In this document: in pieces, positions 7,147 through 20,076 of the stretch
How the letters are laid out: each line of letters opens with the position of its first letter
Position numbering within the stretch: the stretch's first letter is position 1
Source of the DNA: a virus
Lineage: Duplodnaviria > Heunggongvirae > Uroviricota > Caudoviricetes
IMG/VR virus record: IMGVR_UViG_2541047680_000009
Span: 1-37,464 of that record
Length of the DNA: 37,464 nt
Strand: one strand, 5' to 3'
Made by a program: the position numbers and the translations under genes
Notes under the pieces: generated by a model
Databases searched by the model: none
What the model was told of the DNA's origin: nothing
What the model saw: only the letters and a program-made list of their open reading frames with translations

Positions 7147-8241
7147 ATGCTTAAAAGACGTGATGCTTTTTTAAAGAAAAGCGCGCTGGCAGTGAGTGTG
7201 GCCCTGCTGCTCTCATCTCAGGCTTTGGCTCATAAAACAATTACTGATTCAACGGCGGGTATTATCTGGATTGATAATGGCACTCAGTCACTTGAAAGTG
7301 CAAGTGTGATTGACAGAAATGGAAATGCTAACGGTGATGGTAGTGTTACTGGAAAAAACTTTGCTGTTGGTTCCGATGCAATAATTTGGGATGCGGATAA
7401 ATCCATGGCAACAGGAAATAAGACAGCTGTTTTTAATGCAGACAACAGTGTCGCTCTGGGGTATGGCTCTCAGGTGAATGGAGAAAGCAATGTACTTTCT
7501 GTAGGGGCCGGTCCTTCAGGATATGGATTTTCAGTTGATGGTGCACCGGAAACCCGCCGGATTATAAATGTTTCAGATGGTGTTAAGGATAGTGATGCGG
7601 CCACAAAAGGACAGATGGACAACGCCATTGCAGGTGCTGTACGGGTGTCGGGGGATGCCCTGCGCGGTGAGATAGGAGCTGTCTACCGTGATGCTGTTTC
7701 TCATACTGACAGTCAGGTCACAGCAGTACGTGATGAACTGAAGGCAGAGGGAGACAGTCTGCGCGGTGAGATAGGCGGTGTATACAGAGATGCCCGTGCT
7801 CATACTGACAGTCAGGTTACAGCAGTACGTGATGAACTCAGCAGGGATATTATTGCAGTCACATCGGCAGCGGTGGCGCAGACGGATGCAGCAATAGCCT
7901 CAAATACAGCAGCGATAAGGAATAACAGTCATCGTCTGGATTTGACGGAAGCCTGGCAGAAGATGGCGACAGAGAGAATGAATAATATGCAGGAGCAGAT
8001 TAAAGAGAACCGGAAGGAGTTAAGGGAGAGTGCAGCCCAGAGCGCGGCACTGGCCGGTCTTTTCCAGCCATACAGTGTTGGAAAATTTAACGCGACAGCA
8101 GCCGTTGGTGGTTACCGTGATGAGCAGGCCATTGCGGTGGGCGTGGGCTACCGTTTCAGAGAGAATGTGGCAGGAAAAGTTGCAGTTGCTGCAGGTGGGT
8201 CATCCGCATCGTGGAATGCTGGTGTGAATTTTGAGTTCTGA
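7147..8241 (+). CDS. Trimeric autotransporter adhesin, YadA/Eib-like (signal peptide, coiled-coil stalk, C-terminal beta-barrel anchor)
   Basis: AGGAG RBS 8 nt upstream of the ATG at 7147; signal peptide [28 protein letters not shown]; central heptad-rich repeats; C-terminal anchor ending ...AVGVGYRF...GVNFEF as in YadA-family translocator domains. AT-rich upstream region. Confidence 0.8.
7651..7848 (+). repeat. In-frame tandem duplication, 2 x 99 bp (33-aa coiled-coil unit) inside the adhesin gene
   Basis: Copy 1 at 7651-7749 and copy 2 at 7750-7848 are roughly 80% identical; they encode [33 protein letters not shown] and [33 protein letters not shown]. Confidence 0.85.
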
Positions 8242-8302: not shown

Positions 8303-8758
8303 ATGCTGGATATAATCCTGGCGACGAGAGATATTTATTTTGAAAAAGCCCTGCGAGAGGTATTTGGAACCGTAAGCAGTCGAATCAGATATATAGAAGA
8401 TGCCATATCAGACAGAAGAAGGGTGCAGTCAGGCAGGTCATTCAGATATTATTTTGTATTCTGTGATGATGAGTATACAGATATTGTTCGTATTCTTTTT
8501 ACCGGAGAGGCCTGCTGTATTCTGAATAAGTCGATGCTGAATCTGAGAGCGGCCGGAGGTGTGTTGACGCTGGAAGAGCGCAGAGCGGTACTGAACCGGT
8601 ATTACAGAGGTTTAAGTATTGCGGAGATTACAGAAGAGACGGGGCAGAATGACAAGACGGTATACGGTCATCTTCGTCGTGCACTGCAGCGGTCTGGATT
8701 CCGGAAGGGGCGTTTTATAAAGGGGAGAGAAGTGACGGGGGATTCAGGTGTTGAATAA
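8303..8758 (+). CDS. Small LuxR/GerE-type HTH transcriptional regulator
   Basis: 151 aa; C-terminal LTLEERRAVLNRYYRGLSIAEITEETGQNDKTVYGHLRRALQR fits the LuxR-type HTH pattern (LT.RE..VL......G.S..EIA.....S..TV..H); GAGG RBS 8 nt upstream. Confidence 0.6.
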   Translation: MLDIILATRDIYFEKALREVFGTVSSRIRYIEDAISDRRRVQSGRSFRYYFVFCDDEYTDIVRILFTGEACCILNKSMLNLRAAGGVLTLEERRAVLNRYYRGLSIAEITEETGQNDKTVYGHLRRALQRSGFRKGRFIKGREVTGDSGVE

Positions 8759-9114
8759 TGTATCTTATATTGTGATATCGGTGCTGCTGCTGTTATTTTT
8801 TGTTGTATTTGTGACGAATGGTTAAGAATAAAACATGAGTTGGTGATTATCAGGACAGGTTGCTTGTATATGAAGATAACAAAGGCGGCATTTATTTTTG
8901 CGCTGTCAGTGTGGAGTGTTGCTGTGATATGTCTTTTATTATTTGTACTGATTGTTCTGGGATAGCCATAGTGAAATAAAAAGCTGTCTGAATTAAATTA
9001 TTTTGCACACATGTTTTAATTCTGCACTGAATTCAGAATGGGTAATCAGTGACCGTCCTGACGGTCACTTTAAAGAAAAGGCATTTACACAGAATTACTG
9101 ACAGGCTCTGGCTG

Positions 9115-9453
9115 TCATTCGGCCGATGAACAGTTGCTTAAGACAGGATTATCATTCCCTTCCACCAGATTGGCTTTTTTACCTTTTGTGTACAGTTTAT
9201 ATGAGTATCTTTTATTGATGGCTTCGTAATTGGCTCCGGAGGCCATTTTCATTAGCTGCATAGGTATCATCTCATCCATCTGATTAATCACTGCATATGA
9301 GTTCCCAGCAGTGGTGTTGATATAGACCACCTCCATTGTCTTATTTCCATTACAGACATAAGCTGTTTTTGAGATTTCTTTTGTGGCAGCGGAGGATACC
9401 ATACTGTTGCTAACAAGAATGAGTGCAAGGACGGGAGAAGAGTATTTTTTCAT
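9115..9453 (-). CDS. MliC/PliC-family inhibitor of C-type lysozyme (secreted)
   Basis: 112 aa with N-terminal signal peptide; conserved MliC-like pattern Y.C...........V.Y.......A....................SGA.Y.......Y.....KG..A............C (YVCNGNK...VVYINT...MASGANYEA...YTKGKKANL...SNC); AAGGAG RBS 7 nt upstream. Confidence 0.6.
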   Translation of the reverse strand: MKKYSSPVLALILVSNSMVSSAATKEISKTAYVCNGNKTMEVVYINTTAGNSYAVINQMDEMIPMQLMKMASGANYEAINKRYSYKLYTKGKKANLVEGNDNPVLSNCSSAE

Positions 9454-9958
9454 AATAACTCCTTCTGTAGGTTAAAAAAACAGGTGTTTGATCAGAATTA
9501 TATTAATAATTCATTCATCAGAAAAAAAGGTTTTTGTTATAGCAATAATAATGAGCACAATTGCTTGTGAAACTGGTGCCATTTTACGGTTGCTTAGTGA
9601 TCAGACATGAGATAAATGAAGGGGGATCCGTGAGATAAATAACGAATTGGAGTGGGTTAACATGGGTTCTGGTGAACAGAACTGAAATTCTTTTCCGCTA
9701 TACGATAGATAAGTCGGGCATTGAAATCATCCTTCCTGGCAACTTAGAATCGAGTTTGCTGAAACATGACCCGCAACAAAAAGGATGATTCCAATGACTA
9801 CTCAAAACAATAAGCATGATAGCCTGGATTACTCAGAAAAGCCCAAAAGCAAGCACATCGTGACGTTCGAGCGCGATTCCGGTAGAAAAGGAGAATCGTC
9901 TTCCTCTGCCAATAAAACCACTATGCCGGCAGCCCCTGCCCCAGGGAAAAAATAAACA

Positions 9959-10591
9959 TCATTCATCGTTCGTTGCACGAACGCGCCTGATCTCCACTCT
10001 GGCAATCTGATCTGCTGGAATATAGGTTGCCAGAGCTCCCCAGTACTTATCAACCACGCCTTTATACTCTTCCCATTCGTTACTGCCTGAAGGGCTGCTG
10101 TGCGTGACGTAAAGAACCATATCGCCTTTATTCCCCAGGGTAAACGGACCGTTAGGCCACTCTTCAAAGTTCCCTGGCAGCCGTGACATCATACCGGAAC
10201 CATCGCGAAGAATCACTCTGACCTCGGTAACGCTGAAGCCTGTTTGATCAAACATTGCCTGCCATGCTGAGCTGGTATCGTCAGACCATGAAATATCATT
10301 ATTCCACAGTAATCTGTACATCCATTTGCGACCGTACCTGCGCCACCACGCACCGCATGTAACGGCACACAGAAGTGCTGGTGGTGTTGCCAGCCAGGCA
10401 TTCAGACCTGCCCACATAACAGCCTGGTAAGCCATCATTGCTGTCAGGCCAAAAATCAGCGAAGAAAAAGTCACCTCAATGGGCTTGTGGTGATCCTTCA
10501 GTCCCACATTCGCAATAAAATACCCAATATAGCCACTGGTCAGGGTCACCAGTGTTGCCCATGGCAGATTTAACAACGAAACGTCAAACAT
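9959..10591 (-). CDS. Membrane protein of unknown function (about 3 N-terminal TM helices plus about 120-aa soluble C-terminal domain)
   Basis: GGAGA RBS 5 nt upstream of the ATG at 10591 (MFDVSLLNLPWATLV...); sits immediately downstream of the mor terminator, so likely a separate transcription unit at the extreme end of the early arm. Confidence 0.55.
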   Translation of the reverse strand: MFDVSLLNLPWATLVTLTSGYIGYFIANVGLKDHHKPIEVTFSSLIFGLTAMMAYQAVMWAGLNAWLATPPALLCAVTCGAWWRRYGRKWMYRLLWNNDISWSDDTSSAWQAMFDQTGFSVTEVRVILRDGSGMMSRLPGNFEEWPNGPFTLGNKGDMVLYVTHSSPSGSNEWEEYKGVVDKYWGALATYIPADQIARVEIRRVRATNDE

Positions 10592-10705: not shown

Positions 10706-11104
10706 TTATCTGGATTTGTTAACGTCTTTCGTCTCCTCTGGCAGATCTTCATCAAACAACCTGCCCTGCATCCGATCCAGTTCTTCTTTTCTGACCCGCT
10801 TAACCACGCTGTAGACCCACTGAAGCGAAACACCAAACTTGCGGGCCAGTTCGTGGTGGTTGCGTCCGTTAAACTCCCTGAAGATTTCCCGGTCGCGCTG
10901 ACTGACCTTCCATACCATGCCCATCGGGAAATAAACGTTTTGCCCGCCCCAGACCTGCATCATTCGGTTCGCGACGGCCTGACCAATCTGGTCGGCAATT
11001 GCGGGCTCAATATCAATAATCTCGCGAACGGTCTCAGAGGTATGCTGTGCCAGCTCCACCAGGAGTTCCGGCCCTTTACTTCGAAACTGATTCAGGTCGC
11101 TCAT
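10706..11104 (-). CDS. mor: Mor-family transcriptional activator (Mu middle operon regulator)
   Basis: 132 aa; C-terminal FREFNGRNHHELARKFGVSLQWVYSVVKRVRKEE matches the Mor/C-family HTH region (Mu Mor: WNDFNGRNVSELTTRYGVTFNTVYKAIRRMRR). Confidence 0.85.
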   Translation of the reverse strand: MSDLNQFRSKGPELLVELAQHTSETVREIIDIEPAIADQIGQAVANRMMQVWGGQNVYFPMGMVWKVSQRDREIFREFNGRNHHELARKFGVSLQWVYSVVKRVRKEELDRMQGRLFDEDLPEETKDVNKSR

Positions 11105-11528
11105 GTTTGACTCCCGCAGCTCTGCGCTGCCACTTCTTCAGTTTCTCAATAACACTGCTTGCCTGTTCAGTACTGAGCCAGCGCAGGGCGCTGATGCCCG
11201 TTTCCCGCTTGATCCACCGCGCTAATGCATTTTCTGAACGGTCACGAACAATGCCGGCAGCAGCCATTTCAAGCCATAGCGCACGGATTTTCCTGGACTG
11301 CGGATGGTTATCCAGCGGTAAACCGGAGCTGGCTTTTCCGGCAGGCTTAACGCGAAAGCCTTTCCTTTTCATGGATTCCAGCACGCAGTTTAGTTGTGTG
11401 GTATCCATTCCTTTGGTTGAGGCTTTACCGGTCAGCCCCTGTAACATCTGGCGGTAGGTGTCTTCATCCATACCCAGTTCATTACGGGCAATATGAATGA
11501 GCTGGATAAGACGTTGTTTAGTCATCAT
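11076..11528 (-). CDS. gemA: GemA-family protein (Mu gp16-like)
   Basis: AAGGAG RBS 6 nt upstream of the ATG at 11528; MMTKQRLIQLIHIARNELGMDEDTYRQMLQ...AGKASS... resembles the GemA (DUF1018) family; sits directly upstream of mor as in Mu. Confidence 0.75.
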   Translation of the reverse strand: MMTKQRLIQLIHIARNELGMDEDTYRQMLQGLTGKASTKGMDTTQLNCVLESMKRKGFRVKPAGKASSGLPLDNHPQSRKIRALWLEMAAAGIVRDRSENALARWIKRETGISALRWLSTEQASSVIEKLKKWQRRAAGVKHERPESVSK

Positions 11529-11733
11529 CGTTGCTCCTTTTACCTGCGCCACCGATATAATCGACATATAAAGGAAGCGCCACAGGCCAGCACAGGAACA
11601 TCACCGACCAGCTAATCCAGTAGCCAGCACCACTGTAACGTGAATAAAACCCTGAACGGCGGTGCAGTTCAGCAGTACACCAACCGACAAAACAATACCA
11701 GAACAGGGCACATACAACAGATTCAGCCGTCAT
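11518..11733 (-). CDS. Small hydrophobic protein (71 aa), unknown function
   Basis: ATG at 11733 with a G-rich RBS; two predicted TM segments (VVCALFWYCFVGWC, WISWSVMFLCWPVALPL); overlaps neighbours by 11 nt on both sides. The ORF track extends the frame to 11889, but that start would overlap the previous gene. Confidence 0.4.
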   Translation of the reverse strand: MTAESVVCALFWYCFVGWCTAELHRRSGFYSRYSGAGYWISWSVMFLCWPVALPLYVDYIGGAGKRSNDDD

Positions 11734-11953
11734 TCTGAATATCCCCCCAACTGATATGAATATTACGGGCAGCAATGACAGGGTCGTTATTCCACCATGC
11801 ACCTGACATGTATTTTTCAACCTGTTCGCGTCCGGCAATAACACCAATTGTGATCCCCGGCCTGACGTTCTTAAAAAAGGCGCGGGCAAAAAGGTATCTG
11901 GCAGATATTCGGCAGGCTTTTAATTTCCGGCTTTTACCTGATAGCGTAATCAT
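11723..11953 (-). CDS. Hypothetical protein (76 aa)
   Basis: Start ATG overlaps the stop of the upstream gene (ATGA), indicating translational coupling. Confidence 0.4.
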   Translation of the reverse strand: MITLSGKSRKLKACRISARYLFARAFFKNVRPGITIGVIAGREQVEKYMSGAWWNNDPVIAARNIHISWGDIQNDG

Positions 11954-12633
11954 CTGGCCTCCAGTTTCTGTTGTTCCTGCCCACTGACCGGGCGGTGCAG
12001 TCTGACGTTCTGCCCTTCAAGAAACCCCGCATAGCGCGAGGCGTCGCCATTGCGGCTTCTTCCCGGTTTACGCGCCCTGGTGGTTTGCGTCTGCGGGTAT
12101 TTATGTTCCAGCCACTGCTGCATCAGTTCACGTTCGTCATCGGTCAGGGCGAAGGACTGTATTTCACTGATAACGGCCAGCACCCAGCCTTCAGCAAACT
12201 GGTCACCACGGCTGGTACGGGTGGCAGTTTTTATTCTTTTGTTCTGTGCGCTGATATATTGCTGACGCGCCTTTTTCAGCTGGCGGGCCAGCACTTCCCA
12301 GGTGTACGCAGCCAGTGCAGCCCGTTCCCGGTTGCCGTAGAACCCCACACCCGGATATGTGCCGGGGTGAATGATGGAGTTAACACCAAATGCCTCACGG
12401 ATGATGTTCATCAGGCCCAGCATGTAGCGCGGTGGACGGAGGCTGCCTGTCGGCCAGTAGTGACTGATGGTTTCATCAATATCACTCATGGCGATGTCGG
12501 AATGTGTGATGCCGTGAACATCCATCAGTTTACGGGCACGGCGCAGTGCCAGAGCGGCCTCGTGAGGGTTGCCGGATGCGGCCAGCGCCAGCAACTTTTT
12601 CAGTTTCTCAATGTGTTTATCCTGGTCTGTCAT
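11950..12633 (-). CDS. DUF2786-like phage protein (227 aa)
   Basis: N-terminal IEKLKKLLALAASGNPHEAALALRRARKLMDVHGI matches the conserved DUF2786 signature (KI.KLLALA.S.N..EA..AL..A..LM); ATGA overlap with the upstream gene. Confidence 0.55.
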   Translation of the reverse strand: MTDQDKHIEKLKKLLALAASGNPHEAALALRRARKLMDVHGITHSDIAMSDIDETISHYWPTGSLRPPRYMLGLMNIIREAFGVNSIIHPGTYPGVGFYGNRERAALAAYTWEVLARQLKKARQQYISAQNKRIKTATRTSRGDQFAEGWVLAVISEIQSFALTDDERELMQQWLEHKYPQTQTTRARKPGRSRNGDASRYAGFLEGQNVRLHRPVSGQEQQKLEAR

Positions 12634-12935
12634 TGTTCAGTATCTCCGGTGTACATGACGCCCAGCCGTGCGGCAAGGCGTTCCAGTTTTTTCTGTTTGT
12701 GGAAGTCAATCAGCCGGTCCATTCCCTGAAGGCGCAGCTGCTCTGTCATGATTTCCACGTCTGCCAGCTCTGCCGCGAGGTCACTTTCGCTGCCCTGTCC
12801 GTTCAGGTTGCGGGCGGCACTGGCCGCCAGTTCAGCGGCCTCTTCTGTCAGTTTCAGGGCCTGTGCGTCCGGCCCGAAACGCTGCAGGGCCAGACGGTAG
12901 AGGGCGGTGCGGGTGAGTTCGGTGTTCCGTGTCAT
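12630..12935 (-). CDS. MazG-like nucleotide pyrophosphohydrolase domain protein (101 aa)
   Basis: LTEEAAELAASA...(about 16 aa)...AAELADVEIMTEQL fits the paired EExxE / ExxD(V) helices of MazG-type NTP-PPases found in phages; assignment from motif only. Confidence 0.45.
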   Translation of the reverse strand: MTRNTELTRTALYRLALQRFGPDAQALKLTEEAAELAASAARNLNGQGSESDLAAELADVEIMTEQLRLQGMDRLIDFHKQKKLERLAARLGVMYTGDTEQ

Positions 12936-12944
12936 GCCGCGCCC

Positions 12945-13217
12945 TCAGTGTTTCCGGTCGACGGTGATGTTCAGGCCGCCTTCTGCAGTGGTTTCCATCC
13001 GGTACGGCACATCGTGCTCTGCCGTGTGGGTGAGTGTGTTCACCAGTACCTGCAGGGCAGCCGCCTTTCCGTTGGTCGCCACAATGGCCTGAGCGGTCAT
13101 GCTGATTAGCGCCGTCAGGACGTGCTTCACATCGGTGAGGTCGCGGCATTCACACTCGTTGACATAGTGTTCAACAAGGGTTCGGGTGCGCTGTCGTGCT
13201 TCCTGTGGGGTAATCAT
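12945..13217 (-). CDS. Hypothetical protein (90 aa)
   Basis: ATGA start/stop overlap with the upstream zinc-ribbon gene; no recognisable motif. Confidence 0.45.
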   Translation of the reverse strand: MITPQEARQRTRTLVEHYVNECECRDLTDVKHVLTALISMTAQAIVATNGKAAALQVLVNTLTHTAEHDVPYRMETTAEGGLNITVDRKH

Positions 13218-13408
13218 TGCGAGTCCTCCCTGTCAGGGCGGGAGAATTCCATGACGGGCACGTCTGCCGAAAAATGCTGACTGCAGTACGGACAGACCAG
13301 GGTGACGCGTACTGCAGGTACGTGGTACTTACCGGACATCACGGCGATGGCGCTGTGAAAACGCAGGGCTGTTATATCCCTCTCGCACTGAATACATTTA
13401 AATATCAT
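13214..13408 (-). CDS. Small zinc-ribbon protein (64 aa)
   Basis: Two Cys pairs (CIQC ... CPYC) spaced for a Zn ribbon; GAGGAG RBS 9 nt upstream. Confidence 0.45.
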   Translation of the reverse strand: MIFKCIQCERDITALRFHSAIAVMSGKYHVPAVRVTLVCPYCSQHFSADVPVMEFSRPDREDSQ

Positions 13409-13504
13409 GATTTAATTCTCCTCTGTTTCCGGCGTGCAGAAGCCCACGGCGCTGATGCCGGAATAAAAAAGAAAAGGCTGTTTTAAATAGCTTATATGCT
13501 GTTT

Positions 13505-14035
13505 TTACTGCACATTCTGCTCAAAAGGAATTATTGAAAAATCCTCAATATCACTTTTTATGGTAATACCGGGAATATTTTTCACGGCGTCCTTTTCATT
13601 CAGGATGGCGTCTTTATTTATTTCCTCCTTTACACGGATAAAGCGCTCAAGCCCCAGACGTCTCAGTAATTCAATAACATTATCCGCCCCACGGATACTG
13701 ACTGACGGCGGACGGTTTCGCCACTGCACCTCGCCGGTGGTGAGGTTAGCGAACTTCACCTTCCCGTTGCCGGTCAGTTCATCACGGTGTGCCTCACACC
13801 ATGTCTGAATACCGGACTGCAGTTCGGCCATGCGTTTTTTCAGGCTCTCGGTGAGCGGGGCATAACGTGCGGTGATGTCGCCAATGGTGTCATTCATTTC
13901 TGTTTCAGCCCTGACCAGTTCACGTTGCGCGTCACCAAGCAGTCTGATTCCCTCAATGACCTCTTCGCGTGTCCCCGGCACCCAGAGTGCTGCTGCGGCT
14001 TTGATACGTTTTGCCCCTTTTGTACTTTTTGCCAT
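13505..14035 (-). CDS. gam: Gam-like host-nuclease inhibitor (Mu Gam family)
   Basis: 176 aa; near-colinear similarity to Mu Gam (MAK..KRIK.AAA..VP..R..V...I..IGD.QRE..R.ETEMND.I..IT...A.......WCEA.RDELT..GKVK.ANL.TG.V.WR.RPPSVSIRG.D.V.E.L.RLGL.RFIR.K.EINK.AIL.E..AV..I.GIT.KS.IEDFSIIPFEQ). Confidence 0.9.
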   Translation of the reverse strand: MAKSTKGAKRIKAAAALWVPGTREEVIEGIRLLGDAQRELVRAETEMNDTIGDITARYAPLTESLKKRMAELQSGIQTWCEAHRDELTGNGKVKFANLTTGEVQWRNRPPSVSIRGADNVIELLRRLGLERFIRVKEEINKDAILNEKDAVKNIPGITIKSDIEDFSIIPFEQNVQ

Positions 14036-14062
14036 ATTTTATGACTCCTCCTGTTGTGCTGA

Positions 14063-14332
14063 TTACCACAAAGATTCCGGCCACACGACGCGACAGCCGT
14101 GCAGTTCGAAAACGCCCTGACGGAAATGTCCCCTGTGGTCATGACCGGTATACAGATAACAGGCCTTTCCCTGCTCAAGCATGCGCATGCAATGCGCACT
14201 CCGGGAAACGCGGATGACAGGTTTGTTACCCCTGATGGTGATGCTTTGTACATCCGTGTTCGTCGCCTTAAGCGCCATAATGGCTGACTGCACTTTGCTG
14301 ATTTGCTGGTTGATACCTGTGGTGGATTTCAT
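14063..14332 (-). CDS. Hypothetical protein (89 aa), immediately downstream of the B-like ATPase
   Basis: ATG 2 nt after the stop of the upstream gene; Cys/His-rich C-terminus; no family recognised. Confidence 0.45.
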   Translation of the reverse strand: MKSTTGINQQISKVQSAIMALKATNTDVQSITIRGNKPVIRVSRSAHCMRMLEQGKACYLYTGHDHRGHFRQGVFELHGCRVVWPESLW

Positions 14333-14334
14333 TA

Positions 14335-15501
14335 TTAAACCCCTTTGACAACGTCAGCGTTGACCTGTGGAACCCCGATTTCAGCGGCCAGATTCATGGC
14401 GGCTATTACCAGGTTACTGACGGCCAGCGGATACAGCAGGCTGACCATATTTTTACGATGACTTCCCGGATTGCTCAGGCGGGCACGTATGGCATCCACT
14501 GCGCTGGCGTCCATAATGTCCGTCAGTTGTTTACCGGCCCGTTGCAGTTTGAACGTCAGAAACTCTTCAAGGTTATTGTCCAGAGGCAGAAGTTCGACCA
14601 CCTCACAGCGCTGAACGACTTCACGGACTTCCATATTGCGTTCAGACAGTTTTGTCGCCAGTTCCGGCTGGCCAATCAGCACGATGGACAGCAGTTTTTT
14701 GAAACCGGACTCCAGCTCAAAAAAGCGTTTGAGGTGTTTCAGTGTCGGAATGGGCAGACTGTGGGCCTCCTCAATCACCAGAACGTGGCTGAACCCCGCC
14801 TGGCTGCTGTCTTTCAGGACGCGATGCAACTGGCGAAAGCGGGCGTCCTGACTGCGTCTGATGCTTTCCAGTGGTGCGATGGTACTGATAATGGCTTCGG
14901 CAATCGCTGCTGCCTTCAGGGTTTTCCCTTTCACATCGTTGTCTTCCATAGCGATGATGTATGGCTCGATAACAATTACCGGCGCATTCTCGCGGTTGAT
15001 ACGTTCAGTCAGGTCGCGGCGCAGCGTGGATTTACCCGCACCGGACTCACCGATGACGGCCATAAACCCACCATGACGGGCTGTCTGGTACAACGCCTCA
15101 CGCACGTAGCGAATATCCGGGGTGGTGAACACATCATCAGAACCCTGCATGGCTTCGTCGGCGAACGGGTCACGGAAAAGACCAAACGCTTTTTTGGTTG
15201 CTGGAAATAACACCTGTTTTTTGAGTAACATATTCTCTTCCTCACTGAGGCTCGTTTTATCTGTGGTACCCGCTGTACGGGGCGTGGCCGCGCCCTGTAC
15301 AGCATCAAAACTCTTCGTTGTATCAATCCCCTGACTTTCCAGCCAGGACGCAAGACGCCGGCGCACTTCTCCGGGGCTGGTGCGGGGCCACGCGTTATGA
15401 TTCACAATCTGGGCCAGCGTGGCCTCAGAAACATCGACAGCTCTCGCCACCACCGCCTGTGGAATACGGGCTTCTTTCAGTTGCTGCTTCAGTACCAGCA
15501 T
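14335..15501 (-). CDS. Transposition ATPase (MuB/TniB-like AAA+ protein with N-terminal HTH)
   Basis: GAGGAGG RBS 6 nt upstream of the ATG at 15501; N-terminal HTH (IPQAVVARAVDVSEATLAQIV); Walker A GESGAGKST; Walker B-like HVLVIEEAH; placed directly after the transposase. Confidence 0.85.
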   Translation of the reverse strand: MLVLKQQLKEARIPQAVVARAVDVSEATLAQIVNHNAWPRTSPGEVRRRLASWLESQGIDTTKSFDAVQGAATPRTAGTTDKTSLSEEENMLLKKQVLFPATKKAFGLFRDPFADEAMQGSDDVFTTPDIRYVREALYQTARHGGFMAVIGESGAGKSTLRRDLTERINRENAPVIVIEPYIIAMEDNDVKGKTLKAAAIAEAIISTIAPLESIRRSQDARFRQLHRVLKDSSQAGFSHVLVIEEAHSLPIPTLKHLKRFFELESGFKKLLSIVLIGQPELATKLSERNMEVREVVQRCEVVELLPLDNNLEEFLTFKLQRAGKQLTDIMDASAVDAIRARLSNPGSHRKNMVSLLYPLAVSNLVIAAMNLAAEIGVPQVNADVVKGV

Positions 15502-19280: not shown

Positions 19281-19313
19281 ACCGGAAAGCATTGTGCTTT
19301 CCGGTTTTGTTTC
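19281..19313 (+). terminator. Rho-independent terminator after the repressor gene (shared with the convergent Dam gene)
   Basis: 10-bp stem ACCGGAAAGC/GCTTTCCGGT with 5-nt loop followed by TTTTGTTTC. Confidence 0.65.
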
Positions 19314-20076
19314 AGAAGTTGCAGATTACCAGTTCACGGCGCGGCGTAGATTTCCCCGCCAGACTGTAGTTGATGTTCACTGTCTGTATGTTCAGTCCAG
19401 TGAACACCTCGCGCATCTGTGGGATATCGTTCACCGAAATTATCATTTTTCCTCTGATGCACCGGGCCAGCTCTGCCAGCCGCGAGTAGTTCCCTTCAGG
19501 AAAATCCACACCATAGCCTTCCGTACCCAGGTACGGTGGGTCGCAGTAGAACAGTGTGTGCGGACGATCATAACGCTCAATGCACTGTTGCCAGTCCATG
19601 TGTTCTATGACTGTTCTGGAAAGCCGCAGGTGTGCTGCTGACAGTTCTTCTTCAATACGCAGCAGGTTGAAGCGTGGCGGGGATGTGGTGGAGGTACCGA
19701 AGCTGTGCTCTGCCACCTTGCCGCCAAACGCCTGCTTCTGAAGGTAGTAGAACCGTGCCGCACGCTGGATATCCGTCAGTGTTTCTTCCGGGGTGATCTG
19801 CAGCCATTTGTAGATCTGACGGCTGACCAGCGCCCATTTGAACTGGCGGACAAATTCTTCCAGGTGATGCTTTACCACCCGGTACAGATTCACCAGTTCA
19901 CCGTTGATATCATTGATGACTTCGATCTTGCCGGGTGTCTTAAGAAAATAGAGCGCTGCTGCCCCACAAAACGGCTCCACATAACATTCATGCGCCGGAA
20001 ACAGCGGCAGGATGTGTTTTGCCAGGCGACGTTTGCCACCAATCCATGGAACGATGGGTAATGTCTTCATTTTCAT
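19312..20076 (-). CDS. DNA adenine methyltransferase, Dam family (D12 class N6-MTase), orphan
   Basis: Motifs WIGGKRRL (N-terminal), EPFCGAAA (AdoMet binding) and DPPY (catalytic) in the order typical of Dam; no adjacent restriction endonuclease. Alternative start at 20070. Confidence 0.85.
   Translation of the reverse strand: MKMKTLPIVPWIGGKRRLAKHILPLFPAHECYVEPFCGAAALYFLKTPGKIEVINDINGELVNLYRVVKHHLEEFVRQFKWALVSRQIYKWLQITPEETLTDIQRAARFYYLQKQAFGGKVAEHSFGTSTTSPPRFNLLRIEEELSAAHLRLSRTVIEHMDWQQCIERYDRPHTLFYCDPPYLGTEGYGVDFPEGNYSRLAELARCIRGKMIISVNDIPQMREVFTGLNIQTVNINYSLAGKSTPRRELVICNF

Follow-up and report, generated by a model that had tools for sequence, protein, structure and literature searches.

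Eight small early genes around gam in a probable BcepMu-like prophage of Escherichia coli

The present study concerns a block of small genes at positions 11518 to 14332 (minus strand) of IMGVR_UViG_2541047680_000009, a viral record of 37,464 nucleotides (nt), the whole of which is called the window here. The block contains gam and lies between the gene for a B-like transposition ATPase and gemA. We consider it very likely that it is the accessory part, of the semi-essential early (SEE) type, of a single early operon in a BcepMu-like transposable prophage (Bcepmuvirus) residing in an E. coli chromosome. Previously, a sequence-only reading of the same DNA had assigned the block to the SEE region of Mu-type phages. 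This location stands, the genes being situated between the B ATPase and gemA/mor and the cargo between gam and gemA being variable among relatives. Phage regions of this kind are known, and the present one is ordinary and already annotated; no new mechanism is claimed for it.

Genes, junctions, and transcription signals between B and gemA

The upstream anchor of the block is the B-like ATPase gene (14335-15501), which RefSeq names 'ExeA family protein' and which has P-loop hits in NCBIfam. The downstream anchor is gemA (11076-11528; PF06252, E 1.1e-40), followed by mor (10706-11104; PF08765, E 1.1e-43). All three are on the minus strand, as are the eight open reading frames (ORFs) that occupy the interval from B to gemA. 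Beginning at B, these are g1 (14063-14332; 89 aa, basic, pI 9.9; phrog_2041, E 1e-36), gam (13505-14035; 176 aa; PF07352, E 7.8e-41; phrog_491, E 3.6e-73), g3 (13214-13408; 64 aa, zinc-ribbon-like with four cysteines; phrog_3401, E 2.3e-40), and g4 (12945-13217; 90 aa; phrog_3691, E 2e-54). They are followed by g5 (12630-12935; 101 aa, MazG-like, i.e., resembling the all-alpha nucleoside triphosphate (NTP) pyrophosphohydrolases; phrog_2245, E 3.8e-34), g6 (11950-12633; 227 aa, basic, pI 9.9, with DUF2786, DUF7168, and a basic tail), g7 (11723-11953; 76 aa, basic, pI 10.4; phrog_3681, E 2.1e-54), and g8 (11518-11733; 71 aa; phrog_6436, E 5.2e-15). The limits given for the block in the sequence-only reading are exact, 11518 being the stop of g8 and 14332 the start of g1, whereas its count of six to seven ORFs falls short.

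Sequence comparisons indicate that the eight ORFs are real genes and that most of them are under purifying selection. Every one has a match to a PHROG family (E 5e-15 to 9e-76), and every one, g7 included, is annotated as a coding sequence by RefSeq on a chromosome that is 100% identical. Against related loci, the ratio of nonsynonymous to synonymous substitution rates (dN/dS) was 0.09 to 0.28 for g1, 0.04 to 0.16 for gam, 0.05 to 0.20 for g3, and at most 0.2 for g5 and g6. The values for g4 were more relaxed (0.14 to 0.66, with 0.66 among the closest pairs), and that for g8 was 0.35. Substitutions in g7 are few, and their distribution over codon positions 1, 2, and 3 (6/4/19) shows a third-position bias. 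Scans of the small proteins with NCBIfam and PADLOC gave no match; the PADLOC library consists of bacterial defence-system proteins, and phage anti-defence genes are not expected to be detectable with it.

A mis-call of some small ORFs, especially g7 and g8, is highly improbable. Under this explanation, they would be chance frames, and a 123-aa ORF with a TTG start (11518-11889) would be the real gene instead. Such a longer ORF does exist, informative substitutions in g7 are scarce, and in two pairwise comparisons dN/dS comes close to 1. However, the PHROG matches of g7 and g8 are full-length (E 2e-54 and 5e-15), RefSeq agrees with both calls, and the start of g8 is preceded by GGGGGGA and placed in an 11-nt overlap. 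Furthermore, g8-like proteins of 71 aa occur in three relatives that have no g7 (L059, L062, and L063).

The genes are tightly packed. Of the nine junctions that link B through to gemA, five are overlaps, three of the ATGA type (g3/g4, g5/g6, and g6/g7) and two of 11 nt (g7/g8 and g8/gemA). Three others are gaps of 2 to 27 nt, namely B/g1 (2 nt), g4/g5 (9 nt), and g1/gam (27 nt, carrying an AGGAGG ribosome-binding site), and the remaining one is a gap of 96 nt between gam and g3. The next junction, gemA/mor, is an overlap of 29 nt. A purine-rich ribosome-binding site is found ahead of nearly all starts, the weakest being those at g5/g6 (GGAGA) and B/g1 (GGGG). The sequence-only reading had described ORFs chained by ATGA or by overlaps of 2 to 11 nt and had taken them for one translationally coupled operon. 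The spacing bears out a tight chain, but the 96-nt spacer, which breaks it once and carries a conserved hairpin, had been overlooked. Besides, the RefSeq coordinates of the late operon in the same prophage also include overlaps of 1, 4, 8, 11, and 13 nt. Thus, tight coupling is a genome-wide habit of this prophage and no mark of the block.

Consensus scans place the block within a longer unit. A sigma70-like site with 10 of 12 consensus matches (18832-18804, minus strand) adjoins the divergent repressor gene, and a strong intrinsic terminator with a 13-bp stem and a T-run (10663-10633, minus strand) lies directly past mor. No other good promoter or strong terminator was detected by these scans on the minus strand from 10.5 to 19.4 kb. 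The two signals fit an early transcript of ~8.2 kb containing the block. Transcription would start at the repressor-adjacent early promoter, proceed through the ner-like gene, A, B, the eight small genes, gemA, and mor, and end at the terminator. Given the short gaps and overlaps, each with its purine-rich ribosome-binding site, ribosomes could pass from gene to gene in two coupled runs, B-g1-gam and g3 to mor, split by the hairpin-bearing spacer.

This spacer (13409-13504, minus strand) contains a U-rich tract followed by a hairpin (13427-13463) just 5′ of the g3 ribosome-binding site. Two expression units might be separated here, with the hairpin serving as a processing, attenuation, or protein-binding site and the level of g3 to mor differing from that of A-B-g1-gam. 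We regard this as unlikely. The spacer is the sole long gap in the operon, and the hairpin is kept, with one compensatory double change from C-G to U-A, in two relatives whose gam is 77% identical (L059 and L062). However, the predicted fold (-28.4 kcal/mol) has a z-score of just -2.1, and neither a U-tail, nor a promoter-like site on the minus strand, nor an Rfam family was found for it. The spacer is, moreover, missing from the relatives in Dickeya, Brenneria, and Symbiopectobacterium, and the hairpin from those in which the zinc-ribbon gene adjoins gam without a gap. Two more specific assignments of the spacer were rejected. It is neither a canonical terminator nor a member of a known RNA family, as it has no U-tail and no Rfam match. 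Sequestration of the g3 ribosome-binding site, as seen in the minimum free energy fold, was dismissed since the pairing is not conserved in L059 and L062.

The prophage and its gam-gemA interval

In nucleotide comparison, many E. coli chromosomes match the block at 100% identity. A match to it is present in 640 of 5,426 complete E. coli genomes, with a query coverage of at least 80% in 614. Escherichia phage PhiKM (PQ738613, Bcepmuvirus) is 96% identical to the block at the nucleotide level. The boundary between prophage and host lies at ~9598 of the window: compared with the lysogen NZ_CP099721, the window is identical from 9590-9598 rightwards and unrelated leftwards. This divergence of the left flank fits a randomly transposing phage. 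Left of the boundary, there are ordinary chromosomal genes encoding a LacI-type regulator, a phosphotransferase system EIIC component, a split transketolase, a YadA-like adhesin, a sigma-70 region 4-type regulator, and MliC.

Within the prophage, the repressor gene is followed by a divergent ner-like gene, a helix-turn-helix gene, a DUF3102 gene, A, B, the small genes, gemA, and mor. Beyond mor, the holin, lysis, head, and tail genes are on the other strand, and the overall arrangement is the BcepMu layout. Specifically, the early arm of BcepMu (gp01-gp09) has the same order of Mor, GemA, small genes, ExeA-type B, and A. The transposase is of the Tn552/rve type and B of the ExeA type, as in BcepMu and unlike A and B of Mu. 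What the block shares with the SEE region of Mu-type phages is the early position between B and gemA/mor, the presence of gam, short and tightly packed genes, and poor conservation. Unlike in Mu, Gam and GemA are the only products that could be paired with a named Mu function; none of the other small proteins matched one such as kil, sot, arm, cim, or lig. The two known phages of this kind differ from the window to unequal extents. The BcepMu early arm (L094, 1-12000) has no annotated gam, and the place of g3 to g8 is taken by pyrophosphatase, DUF3164, HU-like, and DUF2528 genes, with an SSB-like gene also in the interval. PhiKM has the same genes in the same order as the window, apart from an extra hydrophobic gene and the other allele of g8.

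The early regions were compared over 89 gam-centred loci collected from genomes and viral contigs, with interval lengths taken over ~70 of them; overlapping frames that greedy ORF picking had mis-called in these loci (c8, c12, and c32-34) were disregarded. Such a comparison had been proposed in the sequence-only reading as a way to find the variable genes; it identifies g3 to g8 as variable, but g1 and g6 turn out to be conserved or widely shared. The backbone of A-B-g1-gam and gemA-mor remains conserved as far as Dickeya, Brenneria, and Symbiopectobacterium, where the identity of g1 is 35 to 50%. Among the related loci that carry B, the identity of the ATPase is 41 to 100%. The gam-gemA interval itself ranges from 42 to 3,463 nt. 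The genes g3, g4, g7, and g8 are mostly limited to E. coli-type elements and a few relatives, and g3-like zinc-ribbon genes stand directly past gam in Brenneria, Symbiopectobacterium, and one Dickeya-type locus. The Brenneria interval of ~400 nt contains only the g3-like gene and one other small gene, g4 to g8 being absent, and Dickeya relatives are without g6. The lack of g4 to g8 in Brenneria is an indirect indication that these genes may be dispensable for lytic growth in the laboratory.

Gain, loss, and replacement of cassettes are seen even between prophages that are 97 to 99% identical. Most relatives have, between g5 and g6, an extra gene of 71 to 72 aa with a very hydrophobic N-terminal helix (7629-7844 in PhiKM, L002; ~7400-7625 in L023), which is absent from the window, and four loci carry a longer insert at the same point (L035, L036, L056, and L057). 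In one viral contig (L048, ~8425-9620), g7 is truncated by an insertion of ~1.4 kb, which, judging from its out-of-frame ORFs, is probably an insertion sequence on the opposite strand. In two other loci (L033 and L047), g7 is replaced by other sequence. Two alleles of g8, 41% identical, occur within otherwise near-identical prophages, most relatives sharing with PhiKM the one that the window does not have, and g4 alleles are 72 to 97% identical while their neighbours are 96 to 99% identical. In farther loci, methyltransferase-like, HU-like, helix-turn-helix, and other genes are found in the interval. From these comparisons, we propose the gam-gemA interval as a recombination hot spot at which cassettes would be gained, lost, and swapped. 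The SEE region has been described as long and poorly conserved and as encoding small uncharacterised proteins (PMC8705779). The variable gam-gemA cargo in relatives matches this description.

Candidate roles of the encoded proteins

The g1 family comprises 85 representative clusters among 1.84 billion proteins, all of ~90 to 115 aa. Sequence and profile searches, including two g1 alignments run against the PDB, gave no relative in Pfam, NCBIfam, or the PDB, and a Pfam scan of 47 family members yielded scattered chance hits only. The gene is always immediately downstream of the ExeA-type B, including in the Burkholderiaceae loci L009 and L070. The small gene directly past B in BcepMu, gp07, is weakly related to g1 in a profile match (hhalign probability 82%). 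Hence g1 may assist the ExeA-type B ATPase as an accessory protein.

The identification of Gam in the sequence-only reading is confirmed, as the protein scores 139.9 bits against a cut-off of 28.3 for PF07352 and its residues 23-169 correspond to positions 1-148 of the 149 in the profile. Its description as a known RecBCD inhibitor needs correction. Mu-type Gam acts by binding and protecting DNA ends and, unlike lambda Gam, is not a direct RecBCD inhibitor. It has been reported that Mu Gam binds the ends of double-stranded DNA and shields the DNA from RecBCD (PMC8705779). By homology, the Gam of this prophage would likewise bind DNA ends and protect them, so that phage DNA would be shielded from RecBCD.

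The DUF2786-like N-terminus noted earlier belongs to g6, whose residues 8-44 score 43 bits against the PF10979 cut-off of 23.9. A second domain, DUF7168 (PF23771; 91.5 bits against 25.5), follows it in N-to-C order at residues 46-189, and all full-length g6 homologues have both domains. The predicted structure (pLDDT 87, pTM 0.77) shows a DUF2786 helical hairpin and a DUF7168 core modelled as a KH-like beta-alpha-beta-beta-alpha fold. A type I KH domain is beta-alpha-alpha-beta-beta-alpha; the g6 core has one helix fewer and no GXXG loop. Specifically, residues 58-68 contain no GXXG, and an alignment of 29 sequences has no invariant pair of glycines. Thus, in the model, the DUF7168 core resembles the type I KH fold without being a member of it. 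Homologues of g6 were found in 171 phage records, including the Pseudomonas phages JBD24 and JBD18 and Ralstonia phages. In JBD24 and JBD18, the g6-type gene is an early gene located between gam and gemA; the gene order in JBD18 is A-B-...-gam-...-DUF2786-...-GemA-Mor. Literature searches on DUF2786 and DUF7168 returned no functional study. The protein may be a basic nucleic-acid-binding protein common to many transposable phages.

The MazG-like signature (EExxE...ExxD) reported in the sequence-only reading is found in g5, as E31-E32-x-x-E35 and E56-x-x-D59, and E31, E32, E56, D59, E61, and E65 do not vary among 23 homologues. The PHROG family matched by g5, phrog_2245, is annotated as 'nucleoside triphosphate pyrophosphohydrolase'. 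The curated profile threshold, however, is not reached, with PRA-PH (PF01503) scoring 14.9 bits against 21.3. The homologues match weakly as well, 18 of the 23 to PRA-PH (best E 4e-4) and 13 to MazG (PF03819; best E 0.019). Against the Bacillus MazG structure 5ie9, the g5 profile gave an E of 0.49 with the motifs in register, and PDB searches overall, with single sequences of g5 and g6 and with profiles of g5 and of two g1 alignments, were negative or gave an E of ~0.5. The AlphaFold2 model of g5 (pLDDT 81) is all-helical, with the last helix modelled unbroken. Its top Foldseek neighbours were DCTPP1, integron iMazG, 5ie9, HisN2, YpjD, AF1178, and E. coli MazG, at non-significant scores (E of at least 0.15, TM 0.39 to 0.50; entries 7mu5, 2q5z, 2q73, 5ie9, 7bgn, 2gta, 4qgp, and 3crc). 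We accept 'MazG-like' as the best reading of g5, even though its scores stay below the curated thresholds. Members of the family occur only in BcepMu-like elements of Enterobacterales.

Known proteins of this type include Atd1 of Pectobacterium phage PcCB7V, iMazG, and human DCTPP1, which are all-helical proteins of ~100 aa with EExxE and ExxD like g5, but no significant sequence or structure score connects them with it. Atd1, a single-domain MazG-like phage enzyme, has been reported to deplete (p)ppGpp and to blunt TIR-STING toxicity (bioRxiv 10.1101/2022.06.09.495361). It offers a functional precedent and is not evidence on g5. In BcepMu, gp06, next to gp07 and in the slot equivalent to that of g5, is annotated 'pyrophosphatase' and has acidic motifs (SEVAEAME and ELAD) resembling those of g5. 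A homology between the two is not demonstrable, only ELAD being aligned by hhalign at a non-significant E of 0.3. If the MazG-like reading holds, g5 would be a small pyrophosphohydrolase that clears non-canonical deoxynucleoside triphosphates (dNTPs) or an alarmone such as (p)ppGpp, thereby favouring phage replication.

The three proteins g1, g6, and g5 lend themselves to another explanation, namely, that the genes of the block are mostly accessories of replication and transposition, with g1 aiding B, g6 binding intermediates, and g5 cleaning the dNTP pool. We consider this possible, if doubtful. The strict synteny of g1 with the ExeA-type B, which persists even at 45% identity of B, fits it. 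So do the g6 homologues next to gam in transposable phages of Pseudomonas and Burkholderiales and those in Ralstonia phages, as well as the pyrophosphatase, HU-like, and SSB-like genes that BcepMu has in the same interval. However, Brenneria-type relatives have A, B, g1, gam, gemA, and mor without any of g4 to g8, and Dickeya relatives dispense with g6. Therefore, these genes are not required for the transposition machinery itself.

The four-cysteine zinc ribbon of the sequence-only reading is present in g3 as two CxxC pairs at residues 5-8 and 39-42 (C5-x2-C8 and C39-x2-C42), both of which are kept in L059 and in a fused protein, P0102; the Pfam zinc-finger models all remained sub-threshold for g3. 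An assignment of g3 as a Mu Com-like zinc finger was rejected, as there is no Pfam match. The cysteine spacing of Com also differs from that of g3. The fused P0102 (166 aa), of a kind found in a few genomes, arises where the zinc-ribbon ORF reads into the MazG-like ORF, and its C-terminus is frameshifted. Three further proteins (P0076, P0095, and P0096) have an extension of ~70 aa C-terminal to the MazG-like domain. The genes g3 and g5 are adjacent in Symbiopectobacterium and in one Dickeya-type locus. An obligate pairing of the zinc ribbon with the MazG-like protein was discarded, since Brenneria has g3 without g5 and the Dickeya loci L003 and L065 have g5 without g3. In the GenBank record of PhiKM (L002, 8494-8715), a hypothetical plus-strand ORF is annotated over the conserved minus-strand g3; it is probably a mis-annotation.

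Two aromatic-rich hydrophobic segments (hydropathy peaks 1.65 and 1.61 at residues 5-21 and 44-60) suggest that g8 is probably a small membrane protein. Family and profile searches with g4 and g7 provided no functional lead. Considering their distribution, g3, g4, g7, and g8 could be exchangeable host-directed cassettes, with g8 probably acting at the membrane.

Such cassettes raise the question of defence. That anti-defence functions are concentrated in the block, as the sequence-only reading had it, is only an inference. In its stronger form, the block would be mainly a counter-defence arsenal, in which g3, g4, g5, g7, and g8 are directed at specific host immunity and g5 acts on (p)ppGpp or an immune signalling nucleotide in the manner of Atd1. 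We hold this to be rather unlikely. The cargo lies beside Gam, its cassettes are exchanged, and some alleles are divergent (dN/dS of g4 up to ~0.4-0.66; g8 alleles 41% identical). Atd1 sets a precedent for single-domain MazG-like anti-defence in phages, and the same prophage encodes a D12 adenine methylase. On the other hand, no protein of the block has homology to any characterised anti-defence protein, and g5 shows no BLAST-level relation to phages beyond a few BcepMu-like ones. The dN/dS values mostly indicate plain purifying selection. Variable slots of phages, moreover, also carry genes for takeover, exclusion, and replication accessories.

Weight of the evidence and neighbouring genes

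The reading of the block as the accessory part of a single early operon remains very likely, but several points weigh against it. The operon structure is predicted from consensus scans, and the 96-nt spacer might divide the unit if its conserved hairpin serves in processing, attenuation, or regulation. By their distribution, g1 and g6 resemble conserved companions of transposable phages rather than variable cargo. A functional lead is missing for five of the eight proteins, and the sub-threshold profile score, the weak match to 5ie9, and the non-significant Foldseek scores of g5 count here too. Likewise, an anti-defence role is conjectural, the negative result from PADLOC being uninformative on phage counter-defence.

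The new points are modest and are leads, not discoveries: DUF7168 has a core modelled as KH-like, g1 is linked to B, the cassettes between gam and gemA are mapped, and the hairpin of the spacer is conserved. A more ambitious combination of them seems improbable to us. It would have g5 act like Atd1, g6 serve as a KH-like binder of single-stranded nucleic acid in elements of Escherichia, Pseudomonas, Ralstonia, and Burkholderiales, and g1 be an obligatory cofactor of ExeA-type ATPases. In that case, the swapped genes g3, g4, g7, and g8 would encode novel proteins for counter-defence or takeover.

The prophage is present in ~11% (about one in nine) of complete E. coli genomes, including clinical strains of the ST131 type. 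Thus, its early accessory genes would be expressed in many pathogens upon phage induction. Regions of the SEE type are recognised as a reservoir of small host-manipulating proteins. Should the MazG-like enzyme or the swapped cassettes prove to be counter-defence factors, they would be additions to the catalogue of anti-defence proteins.

Two further genes of the prophage lie outside the block. A gene for a D12-class N6-adenine DNA methyltransferase (19312-20076, minus strand) is located near the immunity region, and its product could have an anti-restriction or a regulatory role. At the extreme end of the prophage, beyond the operon terminator, a gene in a moron-like position (9959-10591, minus strand) encodes a 210-aa protein whose N-terminal part has several hydrophobic segments; Pfam and PADLOC scans of it gave no match. 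Across relatives, this protein is 100% identical, 69 to 72% identical, or absent.

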